A stretch of 52,994 bases of DNA, the filler included, from Dimargaris cristalligena (lineage: Eukaryota), in assembly GCA_003614675.1 (NCBI GenBank). It is 2 parts of 2 records of this genome, joined end to end, with 100 filler letters (N's around TTAATTAATTAA, not from the genome) between each part and the next. Parts side by side here need not be neighbours in the genome. Positions count along the whole stretch, not along the records: positions 1 to 26,468 come from ML002540.1; 1 more part is not named here. One strand, given 5' to 3'. Positions 1 through 26,468 of this stretch are shown here, one piece after another. Both the position numbers and the translations under genes were made by a program. Within the stretch, counting starts at the first letter, position 1. Each line of letters starts with the position of its first letter. The notes under the pieces were generated by a model. That model saw nothing but the letters and a program-made list of their open reading frames with translations. It had not been told where the DNA came from and searched no databases.

Positions 1-1400
1 TGCCATTCAACATGAACCAGCCCATAGCTGGGTCAATTACCAGCCTGGTTTTTCACGAGGTGGCTCTTAGCAGCACTCTTTTGAAAAAGGTAATTGACCT
101 AGTCGGGTTGAACCTACAGAAACTGCGGTTGACTAATTGTGCCTGCGAAGAGCGGGAAATCAACTACGCACTGCGTTTCTGTCCGCGCCTGGTACATTTC
201 GATTTGTGCCATCGCGATGCGATATTCACCAGGGATCTTATGCCCAGTGAGTTCGCGACAAATTACTTATCGTATATGCGTGTTGCAGTGAATTATATTG
301 CGATTGCGTGGCTTTTACCAGTCCTGCGCAATCAGCATAATTTATTACAACTGAGCATATACAAACCGGGCCGGCCAATCTGCCGGGCCCTTCGCAATGC
401 TCTGCCTCGGTTGAATATATACTTCCTCTCAACCGAGGAATACAATAATCTCGTAAATCGAGAATATATAGAGCAGTCTGTAGGTGGGTAGTTTTTATTA
501 CCCAGCCTGTGATTATTCATTATTAGAAATAAAATTGTTTTACTATATTTATCGGTCTTATTACGTTTAAGAGGGTCTGCGGCCACTATTTATACGCAAT
601 TGCAATGGGTCTAAGGGAATAAGTTAAAAGAGGTTTTTGGTAATGATGTAGCCGCAGATTATATTTCACCCGTGCTTCTTATGGTATTTGTAGTGGTTGA
701 ACTATCGGGATAGTGGGTTGAAGTGGCTTGAAGTGGTGGTGATGGTGTGATTGATTGTCTAGCTGTTCATTTAATTTTTATAGTATTTGTTGCAAGATGG
801 CTGATACTCCCATTGCCATTATTCAGGGGGATATACCAATCCAAGTAACCCGGGGAGGCTGAGGTGGTTAGTAAGTGGCGTTTACTATAATAATACGTAT
901 AATAAGATGCTATCCTTCATTAAATGGTTTGGTTGGTATATGTAGAACAACGGCTATTTTTCAAAGCCAGTGCCTCACAAGTGCCCTCCTTCACTATTCA
1001 CTGATATTTTATAACAGCATATCCAACACACAGTATAGCCTATACTTATATTTCAGGCTTATTGGTATATACATCAGTATTATTTTTGACGACAGTTTGC
1101 TTCCAATATCGGTTTTCGTTGCCCTAGGTGGGCAGTTCGGATAACTCGATATTATTCTATAGGAGACCAATTTCTAGAGCTCGCCAACCAATAGCTACTC
1201 CCTTTTTTCTTTTATAATAGTGTGACACCAACCTACCACCGATTTTATGCGACAGCAATTCAGTCGTTATCGATGCCTTAGATTAATAGTGACAAGGCCC
1301 TTTGTTAGTGCCTCCAAACACTTTCTTGATATTTGGCTAGGCTATTTCTGTTATATTAATATGAATACGGGACAGGATTAGCTCGGCTGCAGAGCGAACC
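1..1400 (+). repeat. Left arm of a ~1.4 kb inverted repeat flanking contig A
   Basis: Over the ORF, position p matches the reverse complement of 26469-p (1-18 tgccattcaacatgaacc vs 26451-26468 ggttcatgttgaatggca). By eye, 4 mismatches in the first 262 nt, then rising divergence; similarity is still visible at ~1220-1400 vs ~25070-25245. Inner boundary approximate. Confidence 0.92.
3..491 (+). CDS. Leucine-rich-repeat-like protein, 5'-truncated by the contig end (copy 1); possibly F-box/LRR family
   Basis: Frame is open from the contig edge (first ATG at 12). LRR-like motifs LQKLRLTNC, CPRLVHFDL, LLQLSI. The paralog at 25978-26466 keeps the frame without indels. Confidence 0.6.
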   Translation, partial: PFNMNQPIAGSITSLVFHEVALSSTLLKKVIDLVGLNLQKLRLTNCACEEREINYALRFCPRLVHFDLCHRDAIFTRDLMPSEFATNYLSYMRVAVNYIAIAWLLPVLRNQHNLLQLSIYKPGRPICRALRNALPRLNIYFLSTEEYNNLVNREYIEQSVGG

Positions 1401-1830
1401 GTCCGATGCCTAGGGTCTAATAAAGCTGTATAACGTTGAGTCCGTTTGTCGGGACAGATATTATGTTAACAATTAATAGCCCGCCCATTTGCCAATACGC
1501 CTACTACTTGCTATCTCACACAGCTGTGCTAAATCTCGCCCATATACAAAGTTTGAAAGTACACTAAAGAAAGTAATTTTATGGGAGAGGGTTGACGATA
1601 AGGACAAATGACTATAATGGGCCATCATAGGACCTAATTTATTGATTAAAATAGATGAATGGAGAATAAGTCGATAAATAGAAACAATTTGGAATACATG
1701 GATAAGGCAATCAGGCCAACACTCAAACGTATAAACACGGATAGATGAATAACTAAATAGAATCAGACAACAAAACGTCTAGTGAACCACCCACCTTCGC
1801 TTAATTCTATTTTTTAAAAAAATAGGTAGT

Positions 1831-3489
1831 TTATGATCGGAGGGTCGATGAAGTCTGAGTACCCAAGTAGTACTGCACGGCCTCATCCACCCACGACTCG
1901 TGGAAATAATTCGCCCGACGGGCCACCTCGGTTAAATCGGACCGTTCTTGTGAAATCGCGTCCAATTCCCGGGCCTGGGATTCGACCCAGCGGTGGATAA
2001 ACTGGGCGGGGTCTTGACTAAACTGGGTCAGGAAGGCCCGCTTCTGCTGGGCGTTTTGGATATTGCGAATGACGGTCGTTAGTTGATCGTCTAGGTGGGC
2101 AATTTGGTGGTGTACGGTAGCGGATTTGTGGTAGCCGTAGGCACGGGACCGGACCAGATCGTCGACTTCCACCTGCAGGTCGTAGACGAGGGGGGATACG
2201 TATTGCTGGCCGGTTCCGGTGGTGCTGTCGCCGGCGTCAGGGTTGACCCGGACAGTGTACTCAATAACAACGGGCTCGGGGGGTAGGAGGTGGGGCCGCA
2301 ATAGATGGGAGACCAGGGGAAACGACCATTCCTTAACCCCAAAGAGGCGCTGGAGGGCGTCGTCGCCGATGATGCGCTGGGGATCCGCGGGGCTCTGCAG
2401 TTTATGGTGCCGAATGTAGTGCCACAGCTGAGTGATCACCTGGATACGCGACATAGCCACCCGGCTGGCCCGTTTCCCGGCCGCCGCGTCGCTATTAGCC
2501 CCGGTGGCCGGGGGGCTGGGCATGACGGGGTCCACCAGGGCTAATACGGAAGCTAAATCCTGGGAGAGTTGGAACCGGTCCGTCGGAGACCGCGGGGTCA
2601 GGATAATGCGAACAGGCACATCCACATCACCGCAGCGTTTCACTTCAAACCCGTCCACGTTGGCCTGGTCCTCCGTGCGCTTCCATTCGGTTATTTGGGA
2701 CTGTCTTTTTTCGTCCGACGGCTCACCTCCCTCCGCACCGGAAGGGTTCGACTCCCCGGGAGGTTGGTTAGCGTTCGCGGAGGGGTAATTGCGCGGATCG
2801 CGCAACAGTTCTACCACCACCGAGTCGAAGAAGGATGTGAATTTACAAGTTTGGGTGGTCTTTTTAGCGTAGGGCATATCCAACAGCCGACCTTCGATTT
2901 TCAGAGTCCAGGACGGCACGGGCAGGGAATCCGGATCGATGGGCTGGGTGGATTTAGTTGTGGTATCCGCCGCTGGATGGGGCGACGTCAAGGAATCATT
3001 CGCGCCCCCGGCGGGGGCCGTAAGACTATCCTCGTCCATTTGGTGGGCCTGGTTAGCCACGGTATTCGACACGAAAATCCGCAAGGTGCGCTGCGTACTG
3101 CCACTCCCGATCGCCCCTTTCGCTTCCTGGAATTCGAGGCGTTTGCGCAAAATAGTCGCGTCCAGATTCCGTTCAAAGGCTTGGAGGTCCGTAAGCAGAC
3201 GCGACTCCGGGACGGTGTGGTCGAGATCCAGCGGTAATTGCCGGTCGGCGATGCGGGGCCTTTTGGCCGTGGCGGCTGCCGCGGTGGTTTGGGCGGAGGT
3301 TAGGCCAATATGGGCCAAAGCGCCAGGTAACGCATTAAGAGCGGTGGTGGCGGATAGCGCGTTGGTGCTTAGGGGGCCAGGACCCGTCGAGTTAGCTGCA
3401 CTCGTCATAGGGGTAGTCTGAGGTTGGGGTGTGGCGGGCGTGGTCGCCCCACTAGGCTGGGGTTTGGCAGCAGCACTGTTATTCTCCAT
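1831..3489 (-). CDS. SNF12: SWI/SNF-RSC complex subunit, SMARCD/BAF60 (Snf12/Rsc6/Ssr3) family, SWIB domain
   Basis: Motifs VPESRLLTDLQAFERNLDATILRKRLE, RTLRIFVSNT, WTLKIEGRLLD, LWHYIRHHKLQ, FSQDPAQFIHRWVESQAREL, WVDEAVQYY are typical of BAF60/Snf12. First ATG at 3489; intronless. Confidence 0.93.
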   Translation of the reverse strand: MENNSAAAKPQPSGATTPATPQPQTTPMTSAANSTGPGPLSTNALSATTALNALPGALAHIGLTSAQTTAAAATAKRPRIADRQLPLDLDHTVPESRLLTDLQAFERNLDATILRKRLEFQEAKGAIGSGSTQRTLRIFVSNTVANQAHQMDEDSLTAPAGGANDSLTSPHPAADTTTKSTQPIDPDSLPVPSWTLKIEGRLLDMPYAKKTTQTCKFTSFFDSVVVELLRDPRNYPSANANQPPGESNPSGAEGGEPSDEKRQSQITEWKRTEDQANVDGFEVKRCGDVDVPVRIILTPRSPTDRFQLSQDLASVLALVDPVMPSPPATGANSDAAAGKRASRVAMSRIQVITQLWHYIRHHKLQSPADPQRIIGDDALQRLFGVKEWSFPLVSHLLRPHLLPPEPVVIEYTVRVNPDAGDSTTGTGQQYVSPLVYDLQVEVDDLVRSRAYGYHKSATVHHQIAHLDDQLTTVIRNIQNAQQKRAFLTQFSQDPAQFIHRWVESQARELDAISQERSDLTEVARRANYFHESWVDEAVQYYLGTQTSSTLRS

Positions 3490-4043
3490 GGCGCGAAAAG
3501 AACGGCTCGATTGGGATGGAATGGATGAAGAAATAGGGAAATACAAATGGGGGATGACTAGGGTGAATTATATAAAGGACAGGTAGTTTTTATAAAAACA
3601 AAAATCTAATGTACTGGAGATGGTGTGAAAACGGAATATAAGAAAGCAATGTGCTAAATCACGCGAACGAGAATTGAGAGCCAGTACAAGTAATAGTAGC
3701 CCTATACAGAATGTTTATGGGAGGACGACCATTCCCACGTAAGTCTTAAATTTATTTGCGGGGCCTATTATATAACCCATATTCCTCTTACCAAGCGTAG
3801 GCAACTTGGGTGGTGGTCTTCAAGGCAATGCAATGGACGTTCAATGGTCTTTCTATAGACTAATGAGCCTCAGCTAAGCACTAGACCAAATATTAATCAA
3901 CCTCAGGGGTAATATTTCCTTTTTATAGCACACACTGTGGACTGCGGTATTTGGTTACTTTATTGTCTATAAATTAAAAAGGCAACTCAGCCATAGTGGG
4001 GTTCAAAATGATGTGGGTATTGCTCCTACTTAATTGGTGCCAG

Positions 4044-6167
4044 TTACATGGAGGAGTCTTCGGGTGATAGTTTCAACAATTCCTGAAGTTCCAGGCTCAT
4101 TGCTTTCCCCTGGCTCTTGCCCCATATGGATTCCTTGGTCTGCAATGCATCACTAAGCCCTAATACATTGGCCAGCTCCAATAAAGAACTGGGGGCCGAA
4201 AACAAAAAGTGGCCCAGCGCAGCGAGTAGGCGCAATAGGGTCATTTCGGTGAGGTCCTCGTGGACCGCCTGAATAATGGCACCAAGGCACTCAATCAGCC
4301 AGTCCTCCAGAGACGCCTCGTCCCACCACCCAGGGCTTTCCGAGCTCGACTTGGCCAAGTCCAGCGGCACCTTACCGCGGGCAAGGTCGTAGTCCATCCG
4401 GCGGTGCACAGTCACCCATGCACTCAGGTTAAAGGCGAGGGATGCGGCGGCCTGGCGGACAATCGGTTCTTCCGCCAACAAAGTGTGTACAAGTAGGCTG
4501 GTGATTAAATCCCGGAGTGGCATCGTACAGGCTGGATGTCCCTCGGAGCCACGTACGGCTGGATTGGAGGCGACAGCATCGGGGTTGGGGAAGATATGCT
4601 CGACCATGCAATTTGAACTGAATAGGTTACAGGCCTGGTGATAGGTTGATACAAATAAATATACGGTAAAATGTCGCAGCATTTCGGAGGGCGTTAGTCC
4701 ACAGTCTTTGGATAAAAAACCCCAAGAATAGCGGCATGGGCCTTCCATTTGAATGGCAGTAAGGGCATATCTGATCGGTCGTAAGATATAAAATGACCAG
4801 GCGTATTAGATCTGCTGACTTACCATACGCAGGGTCGTGACTAATAGGCCTTTGGAAGAAGACTCGCTGTCTCCATTTTCCTGGACTGTGCTGTACAGTA
4901 GCTGGCGTACCAAGGTAAGGCCATCGTCAGATTCGAAACTAGGTTTGCATTGGGGGGTAACAAGTAAGTACCGAACCAAATCGATGAGCGCGAACTGATC
5001 GGACGGGGGCAACTGCCTATGGAGACGATCCAACAGAGTGATGAGCAGACATTTATCGAGTGGCGCGGCGGTATCAGAAACTGTGGCGGCTCCCGCTTCC
5101 AGGAGTTTTTGGAGGGTCTGCCAAGTATCGACATACTCTGGGTTAGATGCCATCAGGTCAACGCAGGCCGATGTAGTAGTGCAGCGGGCCAGGGCCTTTT
5201 GGGCACCTTCCCGCTGGGTAAATAAAATGGGATTTGCCCCGATGCCGTCGAGAGTGGGTGTGCGGAGGTGTAGCCAGTGCGGATGAGCGGGCGGGTGCGT
5301 GGCGTAGACCAACGTACGGAGTTCCGTGGCCAAGGCGGTGGGTTGGGCCCCTTTAAGCTCGGAGAACTTATTCCCATCGAGCAGGAAGATAAACGTGGGG
5401 GTAGCTCTGATGCCAAATTGGGCCGCTACAGAGTACCCGGTGGCCATGTCAATACGGCCCGCCCCGAGGGGGGATGTCGTGGGTTCGGCCTCGACTAGGC
5501 GCCGGAATTCGGGCTCAATGACGCGACAGGGAGGACAGCCCACTGAGGTAAAGAAGAGCACCACCGCCCGGTGCTGGGTGGTTAACCGATGAACATCGTC
5601 CATCGTATTCACCGGTACTAAGCGCTGGGAGGTAGGTGTTGGCATCGAAGTTGTCCTTATCGTTGACGGCAAGGCCGACTGTGCCTGGGGGGAGGCCAGT
5701 GCTGACGGGCCGAAGTTGGCCTCCAGCATGGGTCGCAGGGCCTGACCAAACTGGGTAGCCATGAATTCGCGCGGTAGGTCGGAAATATGGGTGGGGATGT
5801 TCTGACCGGTCAAAAACTGGACGGCTTCCGAAGTGAAGTGGTTACAATTGTGGTCGAGGAGGTGGTAATTGGCAGCGGTGTACCGTTCCGTACCTAGCGA
5901 AACCACAAACTCCTCGAATAGGCCCTGCGGGATCTCGGTGTTCCCCATGTCTAACCGCTGGACGGGCTGGCCATGGGGAGTGGTGCCCGGGGCGGCTTGG
6001 AGGATACCCTGGCCGTAGTAATATTCGGTGCCGTAGACGACGACGGAAGTGTGCCAGATGCCCTCGATGACTCGTCCGACTAATTGCGGCGATAGGGACC
6101 GGGCAAGGCCGTTCGAGAGGTCATAGACGAAGAGTTGGACGCGCTGAGGGGCAGATGAGTCGGACAT
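4044..6167 (-). CDS. PPPDE/DeSI-family peptidase (desumoylase/deubiquitinase-like) with thioredoxin and PUL domains; 2 exons
   Basis: Exon 1 6167-4824: VQLFVYDLS, GIWHTSVV (catalytic His), NCNHF (catalytic Cys), thioredoxin CPPC and ATPTF. GTAAGT donor at 4823, CAG acceptor at 4635. Exon 2 4634-4044 joins as LRM|ACNLFS and has the PUL-like VRQAAASLAFN and RLLAALG. Confidence 0.9.
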
Positions 6168-6926: not shown

Positions 6927-8232
6927 TTACTCTGTAGGAATCAACTGTGCCTCGTTCATCTCTCGCACGAGCTGCGGGAGCCACACCTCGCTATCCTGGG
7001 CATTCATAAACCGGGACGAGCCATGTTTGAACAGACGCTGAAGCTGCTTAAAGGACTCGGGTTCTAATGCACTAGCAAACAGGTTCAAGCCAATGCCCTT
7101 ACGACTGGAACCCAAACACACTGGCACCGTTCCCGAATTTCCCCCTCTCGACTCCAATATTAACGTTAGTAGGCCAACTTCGTTGTTATCGGATAGGTGG
7201 ATTGGTTTAAGTATATGCAGGAAAAATAAATGCCCCCCGTGAACTTCGGGGACCGTAGTGAGGCCGGCTCGGGCCGTCGTGCCATTACTGGCCACCGAGC
7301 TATATTGCCAGTGGATTGATAAGAAACCCGCTCCCTGGAGTAAATGGTAGTTGCGCATCTGGTCAACCAGATTACAACGAAGCCGACGAGCTGCTGTCGC
7401 CGAATGTATATGATAAGGCCGGTTAATACCGTAGAACTGCGTGATGCTATCAATGCACGGGCCTTGTTTAAACATGGCGGCCAGGGTAATCGCTAGAGCA
7501 GCGAAGCTGCACGTGGTCCAACTGTGGGACTGGATATCCCTGTAGTAGTCTTTAACCATGAGGTCTAAGCTGACCAGGAATTGGACCAGGTCGGTGAATC
7601 GACTGGGCATTGCCAGTCGGACAATGGTCAGGTATGTCAGGGGTTCGAATAGAGTAGAACGCATGTCAGATACACCAGGGGACTGTTCGTAGGGAAGGAC
7701 ACTATACGGACCCATCATGATTCGAGTTTTACGTCTTCCCAGTGGGAGTACAGTGTCCATCATTCTTAACGTAGTATGGCCTGTCAAGATACCGAGTGCA
7801 GTGACGATTTGCTTGACATCGGCCAAATCATCCCACAGGCTTAATAGAGGTAGGTCCTTGGCCAATTTCTGAGAGGATTGCTGGTTGAGGTTGCTATACC
7901 GCCAGGCTTCTTTTTGGAAAATCGGGTGGGTCCTGTTAAACTTTAGATAGTGGTAGTAGTCCTCGACATCATACCAGCGGATGGGTTCTTGCATCTGTTG
8001 ACTGGGATCCGTCATATAGCGAAGCGCCTTGCCAAAGTACACGTCGGCACACAAAAACATGGTAATGGATAGCGGCTGGTCGAGAAGGACCATCCACGCC
8101 ACTGCCGCATTTTGAAAGGCTCTCAGCGGCTTTTCCCCTCTACTATAAAGACTCGCGCCGCGCTCGATGGCCTGGTACATTCTCTGTATAGCCTCACCAG
8201 AAATACAGGATAAGCCTATGTGTGTGCACACG
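6927..8232 (-). CDS. Hypothetical protein; probably the 3' exon of the signal peptide/F-box gene upstream
   Basis: 434-codon open frame whose track start is GTG, preceded by a possible CTCTAG acceptor (~8233). Same strand as, and 370 nt downstream of, the F-box exon. No domain recognised; splicing unresolved. Confidence 0.55.
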
Positions 8233-8602
8233 CTAGAGTGATGGCAATGGTATCATTATTCGGCATTTAGGTTAAAATAACAGTTATATGGGGCTTGGAA
8301 GGCATATGGGAGAAGTTCATTCAGGCTGTATAATGAAAAATCCATTGGATGCGGCCAATATTACTGGTTAAAAGCTATTCGCACATATATTCACCCATAC
8401 ATATATTATGTACAACCTTATACAGCTGGTTTGAATTTTACCCATATGGTGCAGAGGCCACCTACTCATCGGAAGATCAATGGCAAATACGGTAATTGTT
8501 TACGGATTTTCGCATTGAACAGGAGGCAAATCAACCAGGGACAGGCTGTATTTAGAAACTAATATTCCGGATGCCAGATTAAACATTAGGGGTCCTGCTA
8601 AC

Positions 8603-9961: not shown

Positions 9962-12900
9962 ATGACCTCCGACAGCCCACTACCATCCGCCGTACCGCCA
10001 TCGTTTCCCCCCGTTCCTTCCCGGTCCAGCGAAGCATCGCCTACCGCCCGATTCAACCATGCAGCTGAACCGATTTACTATGGCGCCACCGCTGCTAAGC
10101 GACCGTCGGTCACCAATCAATCGGCCTTGGAGATGGTCGTTGCCATGATAACCGCCGTCTGCCGATCCATACCCACCCGCGCCCTCTACCACCATTTGGA
10201 GACCAAGTGGCGCTCACTCCACTTCGTAGTACTGAGCGCCATGGTCGCCTGCATCACCATTCTGCTCTCCAATTACTTCTATACCCGCTTCGCCCTCCCC
10301 TACTTCCAATTCCGGGCCACGGGTTCGCTGGTCGCTGGTCTTTTGGTGATTGTCTTTCTGGTCCTTAACGCGTACATTCTGAACCGCGAAATTAACCTGT
10401 CCCGGTTGGAATGGGTACAGCGGGTGAACGCCTTGGTGTACAAGATTTCGTTTTTACATACCCGTCAACCTGGGCCGTCGACGGCTAGCAAACTAAACCT
10501 CGACGGTGGTCCACCGCCATTTCCCTGCGAGGGTACCGATGTGGAGGCGGCCCTGGGTTATGCTAGAGCGTCCGGGAGTCGGCCCCCAGTCGTACGGTTC
10601 GGCTCCAGCCAATCGCCCACCATGGCCTCTACGGGATCGGGTGGGGGCGTATTCAGTCTACCCGCGGTTCCCCCCACCCAGGTGGGTGAGGTGCATCTCG
10701 GGGACAATACGAACAGCCATGCGCTGGCCAAAACCCCCCTCAACGGGTCCGTATCGGCCTATTCGGTAATTCGGGACCGGGAGCTCCTACTGGTACCCTC
10801 GGCTCTATTATGTGCCGGCGACTTTATTGTCCTTAATATCGGTGAGAGCCTGCCAGGGGATGCCACCTACGTAGGGCCCTGGGTCAATCTCACCAATTTT
10901 ACCGAGTCATACCTGGCGGCACTAGACCTAGACAATGGTAGCCATGGACCGGCGGCGCCCACGGATGATCTACTGTGCCTCAAGGCTGGCCAGGCCTTCA
11001 CCCCAATATTTCTAAGGGCCCGGGCTATTCAGCCACTGGCTTTATATGACACCGAGGGTGAGCGGCCCCTATACTGTTGCCAGCACGTCTTTCAACTTCG
11101 GGCCACTCCCTTCTCGGACGACCTGCGGTCGGCGCTGGCCTACGAGGGCTGCCCCAACTCGGTGTTGGATAACCAAATCATGGCCCTCTGCCATTTCCTT
11201 CTAGGTCGAGTTCTCGGGGTGTGCTTCCTGCTTTCGGTAACCATAAACATCATTCGGTTTGTCCTACTCGATATTGTACACCCCCAGTACCGGCCGGATC
11301 TGGTCCACGAAACCAACCCCGGCGCAGCCCCCCAGCCCTGGCGGACCAATGCCCTCGAGTATATCGGAACTTACCAGATCTACGTGCTACTACCCTTTTG
11401 CGGCCTAGCCCTCCCTCTTTTGATCATTCTCGCGCGCACCTACGCCAACGCCCAGATTCTTATTTTACTCGACGCATTACAGCACTCGAAAACCGACTAC
11501 GAAGACTCGGACGATATTGACGAGTTCGACATGGATGCCCCACCCCCCACTAAAAATATCACGGTGTCCAAAGCGGACGTGTGGATCAAATTTCTCCAAC
11601 TGCTCTCCCGGAGTGATTTCCGGAATTTATCCCGATCTAACCGCCTGGTCGAGTCGCTGGGCAATACGACCGTGATTTGTGCTGTAGACCGAGACGGTAC
11701 CATCACCCGATCCTTCCCCGCCGTTGACCAAATTTTGTTCATTGACCACAATAATACCATGGTTAGCGTCGATGTGATGGAAGACAAAATCTACACCAAC
11801 GGCGTGGCTTTTGAGGAAAGCGGCTGGGAACGGCATCTGGCCTCCCTCAAACCCCTGGGCCTCAATTTCCTGCTAAATTCCAACTGCGGGGCCTCCCTCG
11901 GTCGCTACCGCCTGGATCCCCATAAACGCCAGAACCCCCTCCAAGGATTTTGCAAAATCGATGCGGCTCAACAAACTTGCCTCTGCCGAATCGGACACGA
12001 AATTGGATTCACCACCGAAGCCCTCTCCTCATTCGCTAAACTGGAACAGATCAGTGTGCTGGCCCCCCACCACCCGTCGGTACCAGTACTCACCTCCCTG
12101 CTGGACCCGGCCACCCCGAGCATGGTGTCCACGGTCTACGCCGAACGTACGTCGGGATCGAACCAACTCCTTTCAGACGGTCAGGTCCCCCTGGTGCTAG
12201 ATATGTGTTCGGATTACTGGGATGGGAAACGGGTCCGACCCTTGACCCTGGCCATGAAGCAGGAAATCATCGAACTCTACCAAAACGCCCTCGAAAACGA
12301 TATTCAGACCGTGGCCTTCGCTTACCGACCCATCGGACCGGAAGAATTAGGGCCGACCTGGGCCCCGGTACCGGCGGGCGCTAAGGCGACGCAGAATTCG
12401 GTTTGCCTGGAACTGACGGCGGACGACCACCAGCAGTCTTCGTGGCGCTGGCTTTACCGTAAACCGGCCCAGCCCCATACTTACGGGTCCGAAATATCGG
12501 CGGCTCGCCCGAGTAGCCCGCTATCATCCACCGGCACTAGCCCCGGAATGGAAACCCCCGGATCCCCGGCTGAATTATCCCCGTCGCACTCGGCTAAGGA
12601 GCCCTCCTCCCCGCACTCCCCAGCGAACCTTCCCCCTACTCGGGATTCGCCCAGTCCGCCAATTCTGTTAAATGATACTACTGGTTGCTGTACTGACCGG
12701 GGCGATGGTAGTGGGGTTAGTAGTGGTTGTGGAGCTGGCGGGCCATTCCAACCCACCCTTCATTTAGACCCCGCGGATACACGGCCCCGGGTCGAACGTG
12801 ACCGCCTGCGTGCCTTGGTTCAGGGCCAGATTTTCCTAGGCCTAACTACCCTATGCCCCGTCCCCAAGGTCGATGTGTGTGATGTCATTGAAGATCTCGG

Positions 12901-14895
12901 ACTGGCCGGTATCCGCTTCGTCTATTTCTCCCAGGCCCGCGAACGGGAAAGTAAGGCCTTTGCCGAGCGCCTGGGCCTGGCCACGGACTGGAATTCCTGC
13001 ATTCTCCTGTCCTCCAATCGTACCCCCAGCCGAGACCCTATTACGGCGGTGGTCAGTCCCTTAGTAAATGGGGATGCCATATTCGACGATACCCTTCATC
13101 CCCACGCCCACGCTACCACCACAGCCACAACCACGGCAACTGCTACTGCCGCTGTCCCCGCCGATGTGGATGATCCGACCCAACAACTCCTCCCCTACTA
13201 CCACCTCCCTGCTAACGAAGAATCCCCGGCCTTTCTCTTACCCAACGGTTACCTCGAAGACCACGATATTAAAACCCAATTGCCCCGCGGCATCGAAAAC
13301 ATCCGGCCCCATTTGGCCGACGTCGACGATATCCCGCTCCAGGTATCGTTGTTTGCGGAAGCGAACTGGGAGGCTATGCGCGAGATGTTCAGGATTTACC
13401 AAGAAGAGGGGGAAGTGGTGTGCTGCATCGGGAGTGGACTTAAGGCCTCTAACCCTATGAATTTTGCGACGGTAAGTAGTGAGCTATGTTAGATGTTAAC
13501 AGGCTCGAGGTCATTTTAGGTTTTACTATCAATGTAATGCGCACGCCTGTATTTTTTTGAATTTACTATGGTTTTGATTTGACTAACCGATATTACCGCC
13601 ACTTTTTTTTAAAACTCTCTCTTCCTCTGAAATATTAATATTATGTGATGGACCTCCACCAGGCCGATTTTGCGATTGCCATCGATCCCTATCCTATGGG
13701 ATTCCGGGGGCTGTATCGAGATGCGACCCCCGAATTCTCTTCGCCGCTGGTTTCTTTACAAACCCCGCGGGATGTGGCCACCTCTTTCCACATCGGGGCC
13801 GGCCTTATTAGCTTACCATGCTCGCTGACATTCCAGTACGACACTAGTTTGTACGTCTTAACTCAGATCATTCGGGAGGCCCGGTGGCTGTTGTCGTGTA
13901 TCCGTCAGGTAAGAACCTGCACTTTAATAACAATGGTTATACGATGCTAACGGACTCCGCCTATTTATTTACACTGGTATATACTATTATTTTAATTTAT
14001 ATCGGCTTCACCAGGCATAACCTTTTGTATTGGCAACTGTATTTATCAACACTAATCGATAAGCACTTTTGTATAACTGTACTAACGGACTTTTTGTGTG
14101 GGATTGGCATCACTATTTGGATTATGGCTATCATCTCTACAGGGGGGCTGTTTCCTCATTGGTATCCATGTCGCAGTGGTGCTCTGCCTGCTGCTCTCCT
14201 ACGCAACGCTACTCCCCCCGGTTTTTGAAGGGATCCACATTCTCTGGATCCTTTGTTTCCTGACCCCCCTCTTTGGGCTGCCCTTTTTGTTCGTAGAGCC
14301 CGAACCCGATATTATGACCACCATGTTAGTGAAGAACAATGTCCAATCCCAAAACATCGCCCGATTGTTCAAGTACGCCCTGGTCAGTTTCGCTCTGCCC
14401 AGTATCGTCTGTGTGTTCACGTATCTCATTGCGCTCCAGAGCCTACTGGATATCGGGTACGCCGACCTGTACGCCCGGTTTATCTACGTGAACTGGTCGG
14501 CCTTGACCGACGAGAGCCAGTGGGCGATTCTCTACGCCCAAACGCTGACGAGTTGTATGTTCGTATATTACATGGTCTGCCTGAGCGCCTCGTTCCTACA
14601 CCGCACCCATTTCCTGATCCGGAAAGCGCCCTGGTCCAACCGTTGCTGGCTGTTGATTTGCCCCTTTATCCTGCTGTGCCAATGTGCGTTTGCTGCGGCG
14701 ACCATGGCCTCGGGACCGCCTAATCTAATGGACCGGTTGCCGTGGTACTATTACGCCGTTACCCTGGTTGCCCCCGTCTTCTTCGTACCTTTCCAGGAGC
14801 TGATCAAGTGGCACGATAAGAAACACGTTGTGCTGTTCCAGAAACGCTCCAAATTGGAATTCAACACCAAACTGGGGCTCCATTCCCCAATTTAG
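9962..14895 (+). CDS. TMEM94: TMEM94/ERMA-like membrane protein (divergent P-type ATPase relative), ~1502 aa, 3 exons
   Basis: Exons 9962-13471, 13663-13908, 14143-14895 (GT-AG, phase 0). A-domain-like LCAGDFIVLNIGESLPGD, DRDGT in the DKTGT position, AGIRFVYFS, FAERLGLATDWNSCILL, QLPRGIENIRPHLADVDDIPLQVSLF, GEVVCCIGS and C-terminal KRSKLEFNTKLGLHSPI recall animal TMEM94. Confidence 0.85.
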
Positions 14896-16444: not shown

Positions 16445-17977
16445 ATGGTTCGCATGCTTTGGGCATTGGTGGGCAGCTACGTGTGCCTGGCGCACACCAC
16501 CGCTCGTCCCCAACCGCCGCGCTATGGCCTTCAGCCTTCCTACGGAAATTACCAACCCCGCCACTTGGCCCGTCGCAACTACGAAGTGACCGCCCCGCCT
16601 TGCACGAGCACCTCCGTTACCCCGGGCTATCCCCAGGTATCCGCGCCCACCCCGTTGTCGTCGGCGGATAACCAGGTGACGGGACGTGACTACGAGGCGA
16701 CTATTTCGCCCCCGAGTACCCCCGTTGCAGCCACCTCCGTGACCCCTAACTACCCGCAAGTTTCCCCTCCGACCGAGGCCACTACCACGCCGGGCTATGA
16801 GCAAATTCCGCCCCCCAGCAATAGTCAGACCAGCGACTCGCCATTGACCACCACGATTAACACTGGATCGGGCGTAACCACTTCCATCACCCCCAGTTAT
16901 CCGCAAGTGCCGGCACCGTCTGATTCTTCGGCGGTGGATAGTAGTGAAACCGACCAGGGCAATCAGCCGACTTCCCCTTCCACTAACGCCACCATTACCC
17001 CGGGTTATCCGCAAAATTCTCCTCCTGGAAATAGCCAGGGCAGCCCTCTGCCGTCGACTACTCCTAGCGGTTCCCCCACTCCCGGGTACCCAACCATTAC
17101 CGAGACCCAGGCATACACCCACTATACGTCGGCAACGCCGACTGACATTGGCACCAACGTGGCGAGCTGGAACACCTACGCTGCAACCCCAAGCCCTTCT
17201 ACCATGACTGACCTCGAGTCCCTGCCTTACTGTGATGAGCCAACCTCTACCCCTAGTGGCGACGAGTGCGATGACAGTGATGACCAGTGTGATGACGATG
17301 ACTGCGACTGCGAAGCCGACGACGGTACCGGCGGCGATGATGACTGCGAAACCGATGACGGTACCGACGGTGAGGGTGACTGCGAATGCGATGGAACCAA
17401 TACCACCGATTTGGAGTGTGTATCCGGTGTGGCCTCCATGCATACCCACACCCATTCCCAAACCGCTGTACGCCCAACTGCTACCACCATATCGGCCACT
17501 ATACCGTCAAATATTACCCCCGTCAGCCCCGACACTCAGGCACCTTCCGAAACCCCTACTACGGCCAATGCCAGTGCTTCAGCTTCCAGCACCGGGAATC
17601 CCACTGCCACTCCCGGCTACCCGACGCTCCCGCCTCCGGTCGATACTCCTACAACCGCTAACGACAGCAGCTCGGTTCCCGATAACGCCTATCCCACCAC
17701 CACACCCGGGTACCCTATAGTCCAACCTCCGGCCAGCACCCCCACAGCTGCTAATGGCAGCAGCTCGGCTCCCGCTAATACCTACCCCACTACCACGCCT
17801 GGGTACCCTGTAGTCCAGCCCCCGGCCAATACCCCCACCGCGACTGGCAACGGCCCCGTAGCGCCCCCTTCGGCCACCCCCACTGGGACCCCCGTGGCCA
17901 ATACGGATGTAACTCCTACTTCTACTCCCGGCTACGACTACGCTCGTATTCCGATTACCCCGGCCGCAGCTTACTAA
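16445..17977 (+). CDS. Secreted Pro/Thr/Ser-rich repeat protein (TPGYP repeats) with a central Cys/Asp-rich segment
   Basis: 510-aa intronless ORF with an N-terminal hydrophobic signal, dibasic LARR, ~10 TP(G/N/S)Y(P/E/D) repeats and an acidic Cys cluster. TATA-like tatataa at ~16232. Confidence 0.8.
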   Translation: MVRMLWALVGSYVCLAHTTARPQPPRYGLQPSYGNYQPRHLARRNYEVTAPPCTSTSVTPGYPQVSAPTPLSSADNQVTGRDYEATISPPSTPVAATSVTPNYPQVSPPTEATTTPGYEQIPPPSNSQTSDSPLTTTINTGSGVTTSITPSYPQVPAPSDSSAVDSSETDQGNQPTSPSTNATITPGYPQNSPPGNSQGSPLPSTTPSGSPTPGYPTITETQAYTHYTSATPTDIGTNVASWNTYAATPSPSTMTDLESLPYCDEPTSTPSGDECDDSDDQCDDDDCDCEADDGTGGDDDCETDDGTDGEGDCECDGTNTTDLECVSGVASMHTHTHSQTAVRPTATTISATIPSNITPVSPDTQAPSETPTTANASASASSTGNPTATPGYPTLPPPVDTPTTANDSSSVPDNAYPTTTPGYPIVQPPASTPTAANGSSSAPANTYPTTTPGYPVVQPPANTPTATGNGPVAPPSATPTGTPVANTDVTPTSTPGYDYARIPITPAAAY

Positions 17978-18768: not shown

Positions 18769-20946
18769 ATGGAGAAACCCATCTCCACCGTCACCAACCT
18801 ACTTGTCAAAGACACCAAGGTAAATCACGTTACCGTGTACCAAGACCGTGCCCTGCTCGAACGTAGCGTCCGCATTCCAGTTCCGCCGGTTGAGGACGAG
18901 TCCCAGGCCAACCCGTCCGGGACGTCCCAGCGCCGCCTGGAGGTTCATATCCGAGGCCTACCTACGGTCCTATACGACGACAGCGTGCGAGTGGATACCC
19001 TGAGTGCCGTCACCATTGTCGATGTCTCCACCCGCCTCCAGTCCGCCAACCCAACCAGCGGTAATGATGCCAATGACGACTGTGACGAGACGGGTTCCCC
19101 TCCCGAAGCCGCCAAGGACCCCCAATTGGAACAGGTCTTGGCGCTACGCAAGGAAAAACAGTACGCCGAATCCCGCCGGGATATCATTCAGCAGCGCCTG
19201 GATTTACTGGAGAAATTCGCCCTCCAAGCGACCACCGTTTTACCTTCGTCCGACCCATCGGGTCCCGGCCTACTGACCCTGGATAACGTCAATGCCATGG
19301 GCAAGTTTATGGACTATTACGAAAACTCACGGCTGGAATTGACTCCCCGTCTCCGGGACTGGGAGGATAAACTCCGGGACCTGGAGGCCCGTATCGACCG
19401 CCTGTCCGGCTACCAGGCCAAGAAACGGGGTGTGTCGGACTTTGGTACCGAATCCGCCGAGTACATGAAATACCAAATTGTGGTGGTGGTGGAGTATTCC
19501 ACGGCCTTTGCCGAGCCCGAAATTGCCCTGGCCTTTTCCTACGTGGTGGGCCAGGCGTCCTGGGAGGCCCTCTATGACGTCCGGGCCTTCACCGACTCCC
19601 AGAGCGTCGAAATCGCCTACATGGCCAACGTGTGCCAGAATACCGGCGAAGAGTGGACCGATGTGGCCATGGCCCTGTCCACCGCTCAGCCATCCCGCGG
19701 GTCTAATCCGCCCCAACTTACGGAATGGAGTATTTCATCGGGTCCCCCCGTGGTGTACCGCCCGAATATCAAAATGAAGCGGGGCGGATTCGGATCCAGC
19801 GCGGCCCCGATGGCGTACGCTAGTGCGTCGATGGCCGTGGATGAATCAATCCAAGTGACCAGTGCTATGCCCTTCGCCCGGTCAATGGTAGTGGGAGGGG
19901 CCCCGCCACCACCCCCGCCGGGCGTGTCGACCCAGTCCGGGATGACTAATACTACCTACGCCCTACCCACCCGCGTAACTCTTCCGTCGGACGACCAGAC
20001 CCACCGCGTCAACATCGGCCTGGTGCACGCCGAGGCCCACTTCAAGTACGTGACGGTACCCAAACTCTCATCGGACGTCTTTTTGAACGCCCGCATCAAG
20101 AATACCTCGGATTTTGTCCTTCTGCCGGGCGAGACCAACGTGTTCTGCGATTCCTCATTCGTGGCCAAGTCGAGTCTGCCCCACGTTAGTCCGCAGGAGC
20201 GGTTCGAGTGCTTCTTGGGCACCGACCCTAGCATTCGGGTCACCCGTCGCCCCGCCCACAGCGAACACATCTCGGCCAAATTCTTCGGTAATACTCGCAC
20301 CCTGCGTATGACCCAGACCGTCGAGGTCACCAATACCAAACCCCAGGCCACCATTTGTATCGTGGTCCAGGACCAGATTCCGCTTAGTAACGAGGATAAA
20401 TGTAAGGTCAGTTTGGTGGAACCGAGACCCCAGATTGTCAAGGAAATGCGGCTGGAGAGTGATGATATGGAGGTCAGCCCGGGTAATGGCGCAGGTGGGG
20501 CGACGGCCGCCCCGACAACAGCGACGAATACGCCGGGGGCATCGACCCCCAGTGGTCTGGGCACCAGCCCCCCCGCTGCTGAACCGACGCTGTCGCTAAC
20601 TGATAAGATTCGTAGTTTGGGTTCCTCCGCTGCCCATGTGTCCCCGTCGGCCCGACTCTCCCTCTACGGCAAGACTCCGCTGGGTGCGGAACCCCGGGCC
20701 GTCCCGAACAGTGAGGCCGCTGGCGGTGGGGAAGTATCTACCCCTGGGGGAGTCGGGGGCGTTGGAGGAGGGACCGCCACCCCCACCTTCCCTCTGCATA
20801 TCACGGGGCCCCAAGTCCCGATCTGGAATTCCGAGGTGCGCCAGGGTCTGTTATGGTCCTTGGTTCTTAAGCCCAATGAAAAGCAAACGATTTCGTTCAA
20901 ATTCGAAGTGGTGTACCCGTCCAATGAAATTCTCAGTGGTATTTAG
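18769..20946 (+). CDS. DUF4140/DUF4139 protein (mucoidy inhibitor MuiA / C. elegans F37C4.5-like)
   Basis: N-terminal VNHVTVYQDRALLER and GLPTVLYDDSVRV, a coiled coil, then YVVGQASWEALYDVR, QNTGEEWTDVAMALSTAQP, LLPGETNVF, LGTDPSIRV, VQDQIPLS. Intronless, 725 aa. Confidence 0.85.
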   Translation: MEKPISTVTNLLVKDTKVNHVTVYQDRALLERSVRIPVPPVEDESQANPSGTSQRRLEVHIRGLPTVLYDDSVRVDTLSAVTIVDVSTRLQSANPTSGNDANDDCDETGSPPEAAKDPQLEQVLALRKEKQYAESRRDIIQQRLDLLEKFALQATTVLPSSDPSGPGLLTLDNVNAMGKFMDYYENSRLELTPRLRDWEDKLRDLEARIDRLSGYQAKKRGVSDFGTESAEYMKYQIVVVVEYSTAFAEPEIALAFSYVVGQASWEALYDVRAFTDSQSVEIAYMANVCQNTGEEWTDVAMALSTAQPSRGSNPPQLTEWSISSGPPVVYRPNIKMKRGGFGSSAAPMAYASASMAVDESIQVTSAMPFARSMVVGGAPPPPPPGVSTQSGMTNTTYALPTRVTLPSDDQTHRVNIGLVHAEAHFKYVTVPKLSSDVFLNARIKNTSDFVLLPGETNVFCDSSFVAKSSLPHVSPQERFECFLGTDPSIRVTRRPAHSEHISAKFFGNTRTLRMTQTVEVTNTKPQATICIVVQDQIPLSNEDKCKVSLVEPRPQIVKEMRLESDDMEVSPGNGAGGATAAPTTATNTPGASTPSGLGTSPPAAEPTLSLTDKIRSLGSSAAHVSPSARLSLYGKTPLGAEPRAVPNSEAAGGGEVSTPGGVGGVGGGTATPTFPLHITGPQVPIWNSEVRQGLLWSLVLKPNEKQTISFKFEVVYPSNEILSGI

Positions 20947-22703
20947 AGTCAGCATTGCCTTGGTTGCGCCCCGGTACACTCGCTTTCATTATTGTTTTTA
21001 CTCCCCCATATATACATGTATTCATTCCAATTAATACAAGCAACCTTTGCTTGAGTCTTAGTTACCTACTATTTTACCCACCGACCTTTAAACTAAATAA
21101 ATATTTTATATATAGCAATACTGTTAGCCTACCTGGCTATATTGAGGAGCTTTCCCACTTGGTTATAAATAATGGTATATATGGAGTCTTATTTACTCAA
21201 ATTGGGAGTGGTGGTAAGGTGTTTACAATGAAATGATTGAAAAGAGATGCGAAAACATGGCACGCGGCTTAAGGGGCGTGACTGGGGCGGACATTGTCCC
21301 CGTGGTACAGACATGTTAGTAACTGAGACATGGCCTACATTCTTGCCGGGCTTCGGAACTGCATGCGGACGATAACGGTGATTTTAGCCTCGTGAACGGC
21401 AATTGTTCTCTGCCAATGAATGAAAGGGTCTCGGGAGTTTTCCCTGTAGGGGAGGGGTACAGTAAGCACCCATGGTATTTAGTTAGTTGTCTATGGAAGA
21501 TGAAGGGAGGGCGCTGTTCGCAGGGTGCTCTGATAATTGACCAAGCCACTCACACCCACCTACCATCGCCATTGTTTCTGCCCCGAAAAACAAGAACGCA
21601 TTACTAAAAGCCATTTCATTCATGGTTAACACTAATTAATGGCAGCAGCTTTGGCTTTGGTACCCCGATAATTCGCCAGGCCCCAATTGATTCGACCGCC
21701 ACATTAGGGAACGATGCCCGGTTACGGGGCACCATTTGTTTCTCTATTATTATCGATTCTTGGGGGCATTTTTAATTATTTTACTATTGATATTTACGAT
21801 AAATACGTTATCCAATAAAACAGTACTGGTTTCGGTATTTGTCTTTCATGGGTTTGGTTTATTTATTACACTGTCCAGGCGTTAAGACCCCGTAAAATGA
21901 CACTAATTTCTATAGCAAGGTGTAAAGTACAGTGTGGATATGCCAAAATACCTGCCAAATAGCCGGAACCTGTGTTAAGTGGGAGAGGGTTCTAAACTCA
22001 CCATTTTCCCTTATAACCAAGTATACCCAAAAGCACCTTAAAGTGGGTTGGATCAACCGCCAAATCTACTACTAGTTGATCGGAATCCAGTCACATGTCC
22101 AATTGGATGGTTATTACCTCCTCTATTAGTATCTCTGCGGCTGGCTAACTGGTTGGTTGGTTGGCTAATAAAACTGCGGCTATGTGTATGATTGATTAAT
22201 CGAAAATCGAATCTATAGGGAAAGCGGCTACAGTCTACTAAACCATTGGGGTGGAAAAATGTTATTTTACTACCTCGCCAATCTATAGTGCTAATTGAAC
22301 TGGCCAAGAAGGTTCATAGGGAGAGGGAGAGAGAGAGGGAACAGTAGAGTAGGGCTTATACTATGCAGTGGTAATTGTAGGACTTCCAAGTGCACCTTGT
22401 GAATTCGATTCGGGAAAATAGGCCAAGCCCACTCTCATTCCTACTTCAACCAGACTGTATTCGTTGTTACACCTTTACATTTTATTTTATTTTATATTCA
22501 ATTCGGAATTCGATTTACGCTAGTCGACGAGACACCCTTGGACTGGACAAACATTGCAAAGACGCACATTCCATTCACCCGTTCACCAGCAGTTGTACTT
22601 TCCACATACCGTCCACGAATATTGCCAACGAAACCAGCCGCTACTCGATCCAGTCCCACATATTGAAACTCCTACACACCAGTTACATTGACCAATTGAC
22701 ACA

Positions 22704-24556
22704 ATGGCCCGGGATCAGGCAACCAAGATTGACACGTCTATAAACTGGTCACATTTCCTCGGTGGCGGGTAAGTGACATGCTCTCCTAAGGATTTGCCCG
22801 GCTTTTGAATCCCTGGACCGACTGAGAAGAGAGCCAAAGGCCAATAATGGGGGGAGGGGGCAAATCGGCACCACCGAATCACCTATATATTTTCTTAGCC
22901 TAGAGTAAGAAGGCTTAGGTTAGCCAGTCTCAGTATATCCCAATGGTTATTAACCCTTTGTTTTCGATCTGCGGAAATATGATTATCGCCCATATTGTAG
23001 CATCGGGGGAACGGTCGGAGCGGTATTGACGTGTCCGTTAGAGGTCGTTAAGACCCGCCTTCAGGTAAGCTACCGATCCCGAGCATATCTGTCTATTCGC
23101 CGAGCAGCCCCCACTCGGAACAGCCTTACACGGTCGTTTTTTTTAAAAAAAAATTACGATACCGCTCTACCCTTAGTCCGCCAAAAATTTAAAATACACA
23201 CCTATTAATGAACCTCACTGAACCCTGGCTCACCCATACACACACACACACACACACACACATACTCTCTCTTTTAATATATATATATATATATAATATT
23301 TTAGTCCTCCCAATACCGAGGCGAGGATCTAAAACAAATGATCGGCCGTACCGCCGCCGCCACGCCCTCTACTCCTTCCGCCGCCCCGTCCGTCCTGGCT
23401 CGCATCGTCCGCCCCATTAGCGGCACTTTTTCCATTGTCCACAAAATGTACACGCTCGAGGGCATCGGAGGCCTATTCAAGGGCATCGGCCCGAACCTAG
23501 TAGGTGTCATTCCCTCGCGTGCCATCTCGTTCGCCACGTACGGTAACGCCAAGCGCATCTATACCGAACTGAACCATAACCGGGAAGGTCCCCTTGTGTA
23601 TTTGTCTGCCGCCGCCACCGCGGGCATCGTCACCGCCACGGCGACAAACCCTATTTGGCTGGTGAAGACCCGCATGCAGCTTCAAAGTCAAGTGGGGTCG
23701 GCGGCGGCGGCGTCTGCGAATGGTGTCCCAGTGTATAGAAACAGTCTCCATTGCCTATATCGGGTGGCGAAGGACGAGGGGCTGCGAGGTCTGTATAAGG
23801 GACTTACAGCATCATATCTAGGTAGGTGGTAATCATGGATGTACAGCCCATGGTATATTTGAAAATATCGGCTTATATTTCAGCGCGTTTATATTAATTG
23901 AGCCTGTTTATTCTTGATTAGGAATGATCTGGATATAACTTTCTATACAACCTTTTTGAGACTGCCTGTAAGCTTGGTACCACCCCCCTCCCCTCCACTG
24001 CTGGTACTAACTATCCCTCCATCGATGTGTGATTATACCATTGTTAACCATTAACTCTTCAGGCGTAGCGGAATCAGCCATTCAGTGGGTCATTTACGAG
24101 CAGCTCAAAAAGATGATCCGTGACCGCTCAGAAATCAACAACCTGGCGACCATCCAATCGCAAAAATTACCCTCGGCTTCATCCTCATTATCATCAGCAT
24201 CAGCATCATCATCACCACCAACAATAGCAACCACCACGACAACCAAAACCACCAAACCGTGGCTGGAGTATTTCGGGGCCGCCGGAACGGCCAAATTCTT
24301 AGCGGCGGTAATCACGTACCCCCACGAGGTTCTACGTACCCGTCTGCGGCAGGTCTCGCTGGTCGCCAGCACCGGCTCTGGACCGGGCGTGATGGTGGCC
24401 CCCTATCGTAATCTGGCCCATTGCTTCTCCACCATCGTGCGGGAGGAGGGGGTGGCGGCCCTATACGGGGGTATGACTGCCCATTTGCTGCGGACGGTAC
24501 CGAATGCCGCGATTATGTTCTTCTGTTATGAATTTGTGGTGCAGCATTTCGGTTAA
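22704..24556 (+). CDS. RIM2: Mitochondrial carrier, Rim2/SLC25A33-36 (pyrimidine nucleotide carrier) type; 4 exons
   Basis: Exons 22704-22768, 23001-23064, 23305-23821, 24063-24556. Three carrier signatures TCPLEVVKTRLQ, TNPIWLVKTRMQ, TYPHEVLRTRLR; Rim2-typical GPNLVGVIPSRAI and AHLLRTVPN. Confidence 0.9.
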
Positions 24557-25069
24557 GACTCTGTGTGAGATTGGGGACGGATCACTCGGTTTCCAGAGAA
24601 TGGTGGACTAAATATAACCACATACACACTCACTCACGCTGGCAATACCTGAGACACTATGTCCTTTAACGGACCCGACGTATCTCGGAGGATCCGGCAT
24701 AAGTCAACCTCACCTAGTCCCAGTATTATACTTACATTTTCTTTCATTTACTTTTTGCTTCCATTCTATTTTGACTGACAGATTGTATTACTAGCAATAA
24801 AACAGCCATTCCATTACCTTACCGTCCTTGAATCGGGAGTGGCATTCTAAGCTAAAGTTGGTTATTTAGGACAAATATAAATGAAGATGTATTTGTAAAG
24901 GAGGGGAGTGTCTCAAATTTGTAAAGAGTGGGCTGGAACAGGCGTGTAATAAAAACATAGGTGAAATTCGGTCCTGCAGTGTACGGCTTTAAATGATATG
25001 TGTATGTGAATATAGACAGAGGATTTATATTCTATCAGTAGCGTTTACCGCATCCAACGGATTTATTGC

Positions 25070-26468
25070 TATAAAGCCTGGCTAGACCCATCCTATATTT
25101 ATATAAAAAGACCGGGAATGACCCGGCCAGCCGTCAAGAAAATGCTTGGAAGTGCTAGCAAAGACCCTTGTCACTACTAAACCAAGGCTATGACAACGAC
25201 TGCATTGATGTCGCGTAATATTGGCGGTTGGCCAGTGTCACACGAGTATTTATGCAAAAAAAAAAGATCGCCAATTGGTTTACGAGTTCTAGACATTGGC
25301 CTCCTAAAAAATGGTGTCGATTTATCCGAACCGCTCGCCTAGTGCAACGAAAATTAATATTGGAAATAAACAGTCGGGGGAAGAAATAATCATACATATG
25401 CCGAGAAGTTCGAAATACAAGTCTAAAATATGCTGTATTAGATAGACCACTGTAAAAAAGTGGCGAATAAAAGCGGAAAGGGGCGCCTGTGAGGCATTAG
25501 CTTTGAAAACGACCCCTTCAATCATAAACGTCAGCCGAACCATATAATGAAGGGTAAAAACATAATATACATATTATTGTGGCATATTCTACTAACCAGC
25601 TGCCTCAGTCTCCCTAGGTTACTCGAATTGAAGTTTCCTATTGAACAATGGCGACTGGAATGTCAGCCATCTTGCAACAAATATTATAAGAAGTAAAACG
25701 AACTGCTAGACAATCAGTCGCACTAACACCGCCACTTCAAGCCGCTTTAAACCACTATCCCGATTGTTCAACCACTACAAATGTCATAAGAAGTAGGGGT
25801 AACATATAATCGATAGCCATATTATCACTAAAAAGCTCTTCTAACCAATTCCCTTAGACCCATTGCAATTATATATAAATAGTGACCATCAACTCCCTTA
25901 AACTTAATAAGACAACAGAATATACAAAAAAATATTTATTAAAAAGATTAAAAAAACTACAGGCGGGGTAGTAAATACTACCCACCTGCAGCCTGCTCTA
26001 AATAATCTCGATTTACGATATTATTGTATTCCTCGGTTGAGAGGAAGTGTATCCTTAACCAAGGAAGAGCATTGCGAAGGGCTCGGCAGATAGGCCGGCC
26101 AGGCTTGTATACACTCAGTTGTAATAAACTATACTGATTGCGTAGAGCTGGAAACAGCCACGTAATCGCAATATAATTTACTGCAACCCGCATATACAAT
26201 AGGGAGTTTGTCGCGAACTCACTGGGCATAAGATCCCTGGTGAATATCGCATCGCGATGGCACAAATCGAAATGTACCAGGCGCGGACAGAAACGCAGTG
26301 CGTAGTTGATTTCCCGCTCTTCGCAGACACAATTAGTCAACCGCAGTTTCTGTAGGTTCAACCCGACTAGGTCAATTACCTTTTTCAAAAGAGTGCCGCT
26401 AAGAGCCACCTCATGAAAAACCAGGCTGGTAATTGACCCAGCCATGGGCTGGTTCATGTTGAATGGCA
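25070..26468 (-). repeat. Right arm of the ~1.4 kb inverted repeat
   Basis: Reverse complement of 1-~1400; ends at the contig break on the base equivalent to position 1. Confidence 0.92.
25978..26466 (-). CDS. Leucine-rich-repeat-like protein, 5'-truncated by the contig end (copy 2)
   Basis: Paralog of 12-491: 3 aa differences in residues 1-84 and 16 in residues 85-159. Confidence 0.6.
   Translation of the reverse strand, partial: PFNMNQPMAGSITSLVFHEVALSGTLLKKVIDLVGLNLQKLRLTNCVCEEREINYALRFCPRLVHFDLCHRDAIFTRDLMPSEFATNSLLYMRVAVNYIAITWLFPALRNQYSLLQLSVYKPGRPICRALRNALPWLRIHFLSTEEYNNIVNRDYLEQAAGG

Follow-up and report, generated by a model that had tools for sequence, protein, structure and literature searches.

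We have analyzed a window of 52,994 nucleotides (nt) from the fungus Dimargaris cristalligena (assembly GCA_003614675.1), the term window being used here for the whole stretch of DNA under study. It is made of two contigs, A (positions 1–26468) and B (26569–52994), separated by runs of N around TTAATTAATTAA, and its G+C content is about 50%. Contig A starts and finishes inside two inverted, inward-reading copies of one kind of gene, the terminal copies hereafter, with a block of other genes between them. The original prediction for this region took the arrangement as a candidate flip/flop cassette, i.e., a block that could be inverted by recombination between the copies, in the manner of mating-type switching or of a shufflon. 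Our analysis indicates a genuine feature of an ordinary kind, an inverted duplication of old date that involves one member of a gene family with several copies; judging by a sharp step in the divergence between the copies, they appear to have been partially re-homogenised by gene conversion, and a near-identical stretch would have halted the assembler at the equal base in both of them. The explanation that we favor, with a probability of roughly 0.7, is an inverted duplication that is static or inverts only rarely, combined with an assembly break in the common stretch. There is no sign of a regulated flip/flop device, and inversion would hardly alter the two gene products.

Contig A carries homologous sequence in inverted orientation at its two ends. 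In a self-blastn comparison positions 1–1329 matched 26468–25134 with 81.0% identity over 1353 columns, and a repeat search of the same ends gave three inverted pairs, of 517 nt (92%), 265 nt (77%) and 166 nt (74%); in a MAFFT alignment the homology of the arms was lost after approximately nt 1372. Such ends cannot be the product of chance. Base 1 pairs with base 26468 with zero offset, so that both ends are cut at one homologous nucleotide, and at each end an open reading frame (ORF) of 162 codons reads inward and has its stop at the equal position (3–491 on the plus strand and 26466–25978 on the minus strand). In this respect the prediction, that both ends stop at one nucleotide within an inward-facing gene, was borne out. 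It had also described the ends as reverse complements for ~1.4 kb, and of this the inverted homology stands and the exact reverse complementarity does not: at 81% identity the arms are diverged old paralogs.

The left copy (1–491, plus strand) is the 3′ half of the gene, 162 codons and the stop, with the 5′ half off the contig, and the right copy (25978–26468, minus strand) is the 3′ half of the paralogous gene, which reads into the block. Past the stop codons both arms continue as decayed non-coding 3′ flanks, extending over 492–1372 on the left and, by the arm alignment, over 25134–25977 on the right, with identities of 62–87% per 60-nt window. Two ORFs within these flanks (875–1141 and 25573–25325) were considered as genes and rejected, as their translation gave no conserved protein. 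Neither are the conserved patches of the 3′ flanks a known RNA, since no Rfam family was found in the window in a scan at the gathering thresholds; ARAGORN predicted no tRNA in it either. The spacer between the arms comprises about 23.8 kb of unique sequence.

The identity between the arms changes abruptly within the gene. Along the 489-nt coding stretch there are no indels and 35 mismatches, of which four are located at nt 26, 56, 72 and 142, none follows until nt 263, and the other 31 accumulate within 263–481. By 60-nt windows, the identity was 97–100% over nt 1–240, 90% in the window 241–300 that lies across the switch at nt 262/263, and 83–93% over nt 301–480. The outer tract (1–262 on the left, corresponding to 26207–26468 on the right in the arm alignment) has 98.5% identity, as against about 86% for the coding part farther in. 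The contrast between 4 mismatches in 262 nt (nt 1–262) and 31 in 226 nt (nt 263–488) was highly significant (Fisher p = 1.5e-7). A binomial test of the step gave p = 2.2e-7, which becomes 1.1e-4 when corrected for the 489 possible break points, and the longest identical run between the arms, 120 nt, had a permutation p of 0.0016. We also considered whether the 25 nt common to both ends before the first mismatch could be the footprint of an assembly k-mer, and dropped the idea: there is nothing unusual in finding the first mismatch at nt 26 when the divergence is 1.5%.

The step is also present at synonymous sites, with a rate of synonymous substitution (dS) of 0.035 in the outer tract and of 0.293 in the inner part (Fisher p for synonymous sites = 0.0016). 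This points to recent homogenisation rather than to a stronger constraint on the outer part of the protein. We infer that gene conversion between the inverted copies left a tract that would end at nt 262/263 and extend outward past the contig. The inner dS is similar to the divergence of the flanks, indicating that the duplication itself is old. Besides, the ratio of nonsynonymous (dN) to synonymous rates in the inner part was low (0.106/0.293, ~0.36), and this, together with the intact frames, makes both terminal copies look functional and under constraint. The C-terminal 162 amino acids (aa) of the left and right copies are 88.3% identical, of equal length and with a common stop position, which contradicts the earlier claim of two different C-termini. 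As for the claim of recombination in the outer part of the arms, the jump from 86% to 98.5% at nt 262/263 speaks for past exchange; the regulated switch that had been attached to it found no such backing.

Word-based searches with the 162-aa piece yielded one related protein among 216 candidates of longer lengths and two among 20 of near lengths. These sole relatives by word search, P0003, P0004 and P0005, are all named as Dimargaris cristalligena. The first (310 aa, 54% identical to the terminal ORF) carries the UniRef name 'F-box domain-containing', P0004 (272 aa, 55%) is named F-box domain-containing in its source as well, and P0005 has 132 aa. The 54–55% match of the left copy falls in the C-terminal halves of P0003 and P0004. 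By alignment, the terminal ORFs correspond to about residues 150–310 of P0003, and some 150 codons per copy, with the presumed F-box included, lie beyond each contig end.

The prediction had called the gene LRR-like (leucine-rich repeat, LRR), a description that the structural comparison and the source names support modestly and that Pfam does not. For the terminal ORFs and their relatives no Pfam family was found above its cut-off; for LRR there was one sub-threshold match (16.7 bits, where 27 are required), and for the F-box no match in P0003–P0005 even at E-values up to 10. The AlphaFold2 model of P0003, built from an alignment of 11 rows, had a mean confidence (pLDDT) of 59, low in the N-terminal 100 residues and ~80 over residues 160–300, where strands and helices alternate. 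When this model was searched with Foldseek, all the identifiable proteins among the matches listed were LRR proteins, including COI1, TIR1, SKP2, FBXL3 and Dia2, with a best E-value of 1.3e-3 (none ≤ 1e-3) and TM-scores of 0.2–0.4. In the ESM Atlas the look-alike clusters were F-box families (score 0.96, 144 of 256 features shared), which we take as a lead only. We consider 'F-box-like, LRR-like gene' a reasonable label for the terminal copies, to be read as a likeness and not as a demonstrated membership.

To the same family belong several further proteins. An exhaustive phmmer search with P0003 against 1.84 billion representatives (E ≤ 0.001) gave eight matches: P0004, P0005, P0062, P0063 and P0064–P0067. 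P0062 adds a third N-terminus to the P0003 type, with 82 identical residues out of 89, and P0063 (226 aa) is a distant relative in the C-terminal half, at 34% identity. The remaining four are short, N-terminal-only proteins with 55–74% identity to the N-terminus of P0005 and 32–42% to P0003, so by similarity they would group with the window type. The window-type N-termini differ among themselves by 26–45%. The family is therefore multi-copy, with at least five N-termini of the window type and at least three of the P0003 type, and its named relatives are from Dimargaris only. Each type comes so far from one named source, and paralogs may thus cluster according to genome, as a result either of concerted evolution or of duplications specific to a lineage. 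Most of the family models are truncated near one middle region, a repeated truncation that fits a middle region that repeatedly breaks assemblies or gene models. Further copies were not found in the window, contig B included, by tblastn with P0001, P0003, P0004 and P0005.

P0005 gives a view of the sequence beyond nt 1. Translation of nt 103–191 plus 233–250 of the window reproduces its last 34 residues exactly; this stretch includes a single site that distinguishes the arms, nt 142, and there P0005 has the residue of the left arm. Its first ~98 residues are absent from the window and align to residues 1–103 of P0003. As modelled, P0005 uses an acceptor at nt 101–102 and a 41-nt intron at 192–232, and is shifted into a stop at 248–250. 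This intron looks spurious and the model mis-predicted, given that the ORF stays open as far as nt 491 and that P0003 and P0004 conserve it. The model also skips about 80 codons, represented by ~150 nt beyond the window and by nt 1–102, a jump that points to a gap or other defect immediately beyond nt 1 within the 40,959-bp record of P0005. A record of this length is also reported for P0006, to which the 725-aa DUF4139 protein of the block is 100% identical; P0006 is present on two contigs, the longer of 40,959 bp. The longer public record thus probably links the 5′ part of the left copy to the block.

Between the arms we found seven to nine unrelated genes, in keeping with the estimate of about seven made before. 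From the left, they start with a SWIB/MDM2-domain protein (1831–3489, minus strand; PF02201, E = 4e-15), followed by a protein with PPPDE peptidase, thioredoxin and PUL domains (4044–6167, minus strand; PF05903, 5e-45, PF00085, 1e-10, and PF08324, 8.5e-13), whose two ORFs are probably one gene with a short intron. Next comes a 417-aa ORF of no assigned family (6927–8180, minus strand), with neither a Pfam match nor a sequence match in the PDB. The gene at 9962–14895 on the plus strand codes for a TMEM94-like P-type ATPase. It comprises a 1176-aa ORF and downstream exons with the Cation_ATPase_C domain (PF00689, 4e-7), and on the sequence evidence it is probably a single intron-bearing gene. 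The 1176-aa ORF had no Pfam match at E ≤ 0.01; when compared with PDB sequences, all three of its matches were to TMEM94, an endoplasmic reticulum Mg-transporting P-type ATPase (E ~1e-53).

Farther along the plus strand are a 510-aa ORF of no assigned family (16445–17977), with internal tandem repeats of 36 and 93 nt and no PDB sequence match, the 725-aa DUF4140/DUF4139 protein (18769–20946; Pfam, 1e-52) and a mitochondrial carrier in three ORF pieces (22954–24556), all three with PF00153. The tandem repeats of the 510-aa ORF, at 17306–17838, translate into low-complexity protein repeats rich in Pro, Thr and Asp. Within a total of 56 matches at E ≤ 1e-20, the next named relatives of the DUF4139 protein come from Tieghemiomyces parasiticus, at 42% identity, and from Dimargaris xerosporica, at 36%, as expected for a Dimargaris-type fungus (Dimargaritales, Kickxellomycotina). 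The distribution of its relatives is odd: outside the Dimargaritales they are mostly unnamed or bacterial proteins of the 'mucoidy inhibitor MuiA family' type, at ~28%, plus a few from fungi.

The genes of contig A are arranged in a mirror-like fashion, on the minus strand to the left of ~9.5 kb and on the plus strand to the right of it, and the GC skew switches sign where the strands switch. All the block genes point outward, toward the inward-facing terminal copies.

Counted from stop to stop, contig A has 88 ORFs that reach 80 aa or more, 31 of which were scanned against Pfam (E ≤ 0.01), ORFs overlapping longer ones being left out. With another set of 15, these make 46 ORF scans, the main ORFs being in both sets. 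Among these 46 scans there was no recombinase, integrase, transposase, HMG, alpha-box or homeodomain family, and the families matched were housekeeping only. The earlier observation that no recombinase or transposase is visible agrees with this result.

From these data the following history can be proposed. Two paralogs, each with ~0.85 kb of 3′ flank, look toward each other across a spacer of 23.8 kb that is filled with housekeeping genes. After the old duplication the inner parts of the arms have drifted apart, and much later the part outward of nt 262/263 would have been homogenised by conversion between the copies. Just beyond the common end base the copies would be indistinguishable, or equally unassemblable, whether by a collapsed repeat, a common coverage dropout or a common trimmed stretch. 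As any pair of inverted repeats, the arrangement would permit occasional inversion by homologous recombination. A parallel for the break is provided by contig B, which terminates inside the 228-nt tandem of a polyubiquitin gene, so this assembly does break at repeats. A static inverted duplication or a larger family had been mentioned from the beginning as the simpler alternative to a cassette, and it turns out to be the best fit, with a multi-copy family actually found.

Several points weigh against this explanation. The length, copy number and identity of the sequence past the contig ends are all inferred, and the copy number of the family in the genome is a lower-bound guess. If the assembler worked with k ≥ 55, contig ends only 25 nt past the last distinguishing mismatch (nt 26) would fit poorly with a simple break at a collapsed repeat. 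In addition, the homogenised tract means that the arms recombine, and events associated with crossover would invert the block, so that its orientation might be polymorphic.

If such crossovers take place, the homogenised outer parts being long and identical enough for them, the 24-kb block would be an invertible segment that sometimes flips by homologous recombination and has no programmed function, and both orientations should be found when isolates are compared or, at low frequency, within cultures. Comparable inversions are those of sex-chromosome palindrome arms and of the isomers of plastid inverted repeats. The inverted orientation with a unique spacer is what this requires, the conversion tract, with its low dS of 0.035, runs off both contig ends, and the common break is compatible with a collapsed two-copy node. 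We nevertheless regard it as unlikely. The visible outer tract already has four mismatches in 262 nt, i.e., homogenisation is not continuous, and the inner 1.1 kb of the arms is decayed. By homology with P0003 and P0065, the piece between the N-terminal exon of P0005 and nt 1 may be only ~150 nt, in which case the truly identical stretch could be short, and the known window-type N-termini differ to the extent given above. A bolder version is that the homogenised middle and 5′ tract acts as recombination substrate with differing N-termini beyond it (for example P0005-like and P0064-like, 74% identical), so that a flip would reshuffle the N- and C-terminal halves and both orientations would exist in populations. 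It would amount to a eukaryotic, recombinase-free, shufflon-like variation of a substrate-recognition protein in a mycoparasitic fungus, and we see it as a long shot.

The copies might also not bracket the block at all, if contig A were chimeric or a fold-back, or if haplotypes or family members had been misjoined. The source is indeed a fragmented draft in which contig B breaks in a tandem repeat, and Dimargaritales draft genomes are short-read SPAdes assemblies, as stated in PMC9866270. However, a fold-back or amplification artefact gives identical arms, and here they are 81% identical, graded, and better conserved in the coding part than in the flank. The block is moreover a continuous run of intact genes, and a record independent of this one, 40,959 bp long, probably includes the 5′ exon of the left copy together with the DUF4139 protein (one record length for both), all of which makes an artefact very improbable. 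A circular element, with the 5′ halves head to head, was considered too and rejected on account of the chromosomal housekeeping content and the existence of the longer record. We give still less credit to a programmed cassette, in which a regulated inversion would swap the C-termini, or the position of the block genes, between promoters or chromatin contexts. Only its geometry speaks for it, with inverted repeats on either side of a segment of tens of kb, together with past recombination between them. But there is no MAT (mating-type) gene or recombinase among the scanned ORFs, the arms are not homogenised over their full length, and the gene is one of several paralogs. With C-termini that are 88% identical and have an equal stop, a swap yields almost unchanged proteins, and should the identity of the outer parts extend as far as the promoters, inversion would regenerate the same two genes. 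In the literature we found nothing joining Dimargaris with F-box proteins, or Dimargaris with inverted repeats.

The gene content of the window as a whole is eukaryotic and fungal, with the SWIB, PPPDE-thioredoxin-PUL and mitochondrial carrier genes of contig A and, besides them, an Hsp70, an RPEL protein and polyubiquitin. On contig B, the RPEL-repeat protein (45181–45939) has three repeats and an internal direct repeat with an offset of 133 nt, and the polyubiquitin gene at the 3′ end (52255–52992) is made of 228-nt head-to-tail units that are 90–92% identical. The region 30000–40000 of this contig has a strong positive AT skew (0.15–0.21), few long ORFs and no Pfam matches, and (AG)n microsatellites were located at 39873–39928 and 48884–48930.

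With the static or rarely inverting duplication as the favored explanation, what we describe is an ordinary feature of a draft genome, an inverted duplicate gene pair with partial conversion and an assembly break. It goes beyond the simpler alternative proposed earlier in that the copies have exchanged sequence. For annotation, it draws attention to a fast-evolving, lineage-restricted, multi-copy F-box-like family in the Dimargaritales, for which the public models are fragmented. For method, it illustrates that coinciding contig break points reflect shared sequence and not a switch. A wider interest would come only with direct evidence of two orientations.

It is useful to compare this region with systems already known. 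The terminal gene recalls the F-box/LRR receptors of SCF ubiquitin ligases (SKP2, FBXL3, TIR1/COI1 and Dia2) through the F-box name of its relatives in UniRef, the beta-alpha repeats modelled for residues 160–300 of P0003 and the LRR proteins among the Foldseek matches listed. It differs from them in having no Pfam F-box or LRR above the cut-off, and in that the family appears in Dimargaris-named and unnamed records only. Shufflons are bacterial systems of site-specific DNA inversion, in which one gene has alternative 3′ cassettes. The notion of an inversion that exchanges 3′ gene ends is common to both, but here neither a recombinase gene nor short crossover sites were identified, and there are two genes with near-equal C-termini. 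In Ogataea a 19-kb region with MAT genes is inverted, placing them under centromeric repression (PMC5720833). The flip/flop of Ogataea polymorpha and Komagataella (PMC5720833, PMC5701183) has in common with contig A the inverted repeats, a region of similar size and a mechanism that would be homologous recombination with no dedicated site-specific recombinase. In contig A, in contrast, the repeats are diverged, and next to them come a SWIB protein on one side and a mitochondrial carrier on the other, with no MAT genes. The likeness to mating-type switching or to a shufflon fails on these grounds and on the decay of the inner 1.1 kb. The block is not a flip/flop MAT system or a shufflon, because what defines them, MAT genes in one case and a recombinase with alternative 3′ ends in the other, was found neither among the scanned ORFs nor in the two C-termini.

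The closest analogue in mechanism is found in inverted duplications of the palindrome type. In mammalian X and Y palindromes the arms are more than 99% identical throughout (PMC8981503), whereas here the identity is 98.5% over at least 262 nt and 62–93% in the rest. A further difference is that the spacer here consists of 24 kb of housekeeping genes in a zygomycete-grade fungus, and the arms are seen only to the contig ends. Common to both are the inverted, gene-bearing arms around a unique spacer and the arm-to-arm conversion, seen as a tract of low dS, with inversion of the spacer as a possible by-product.

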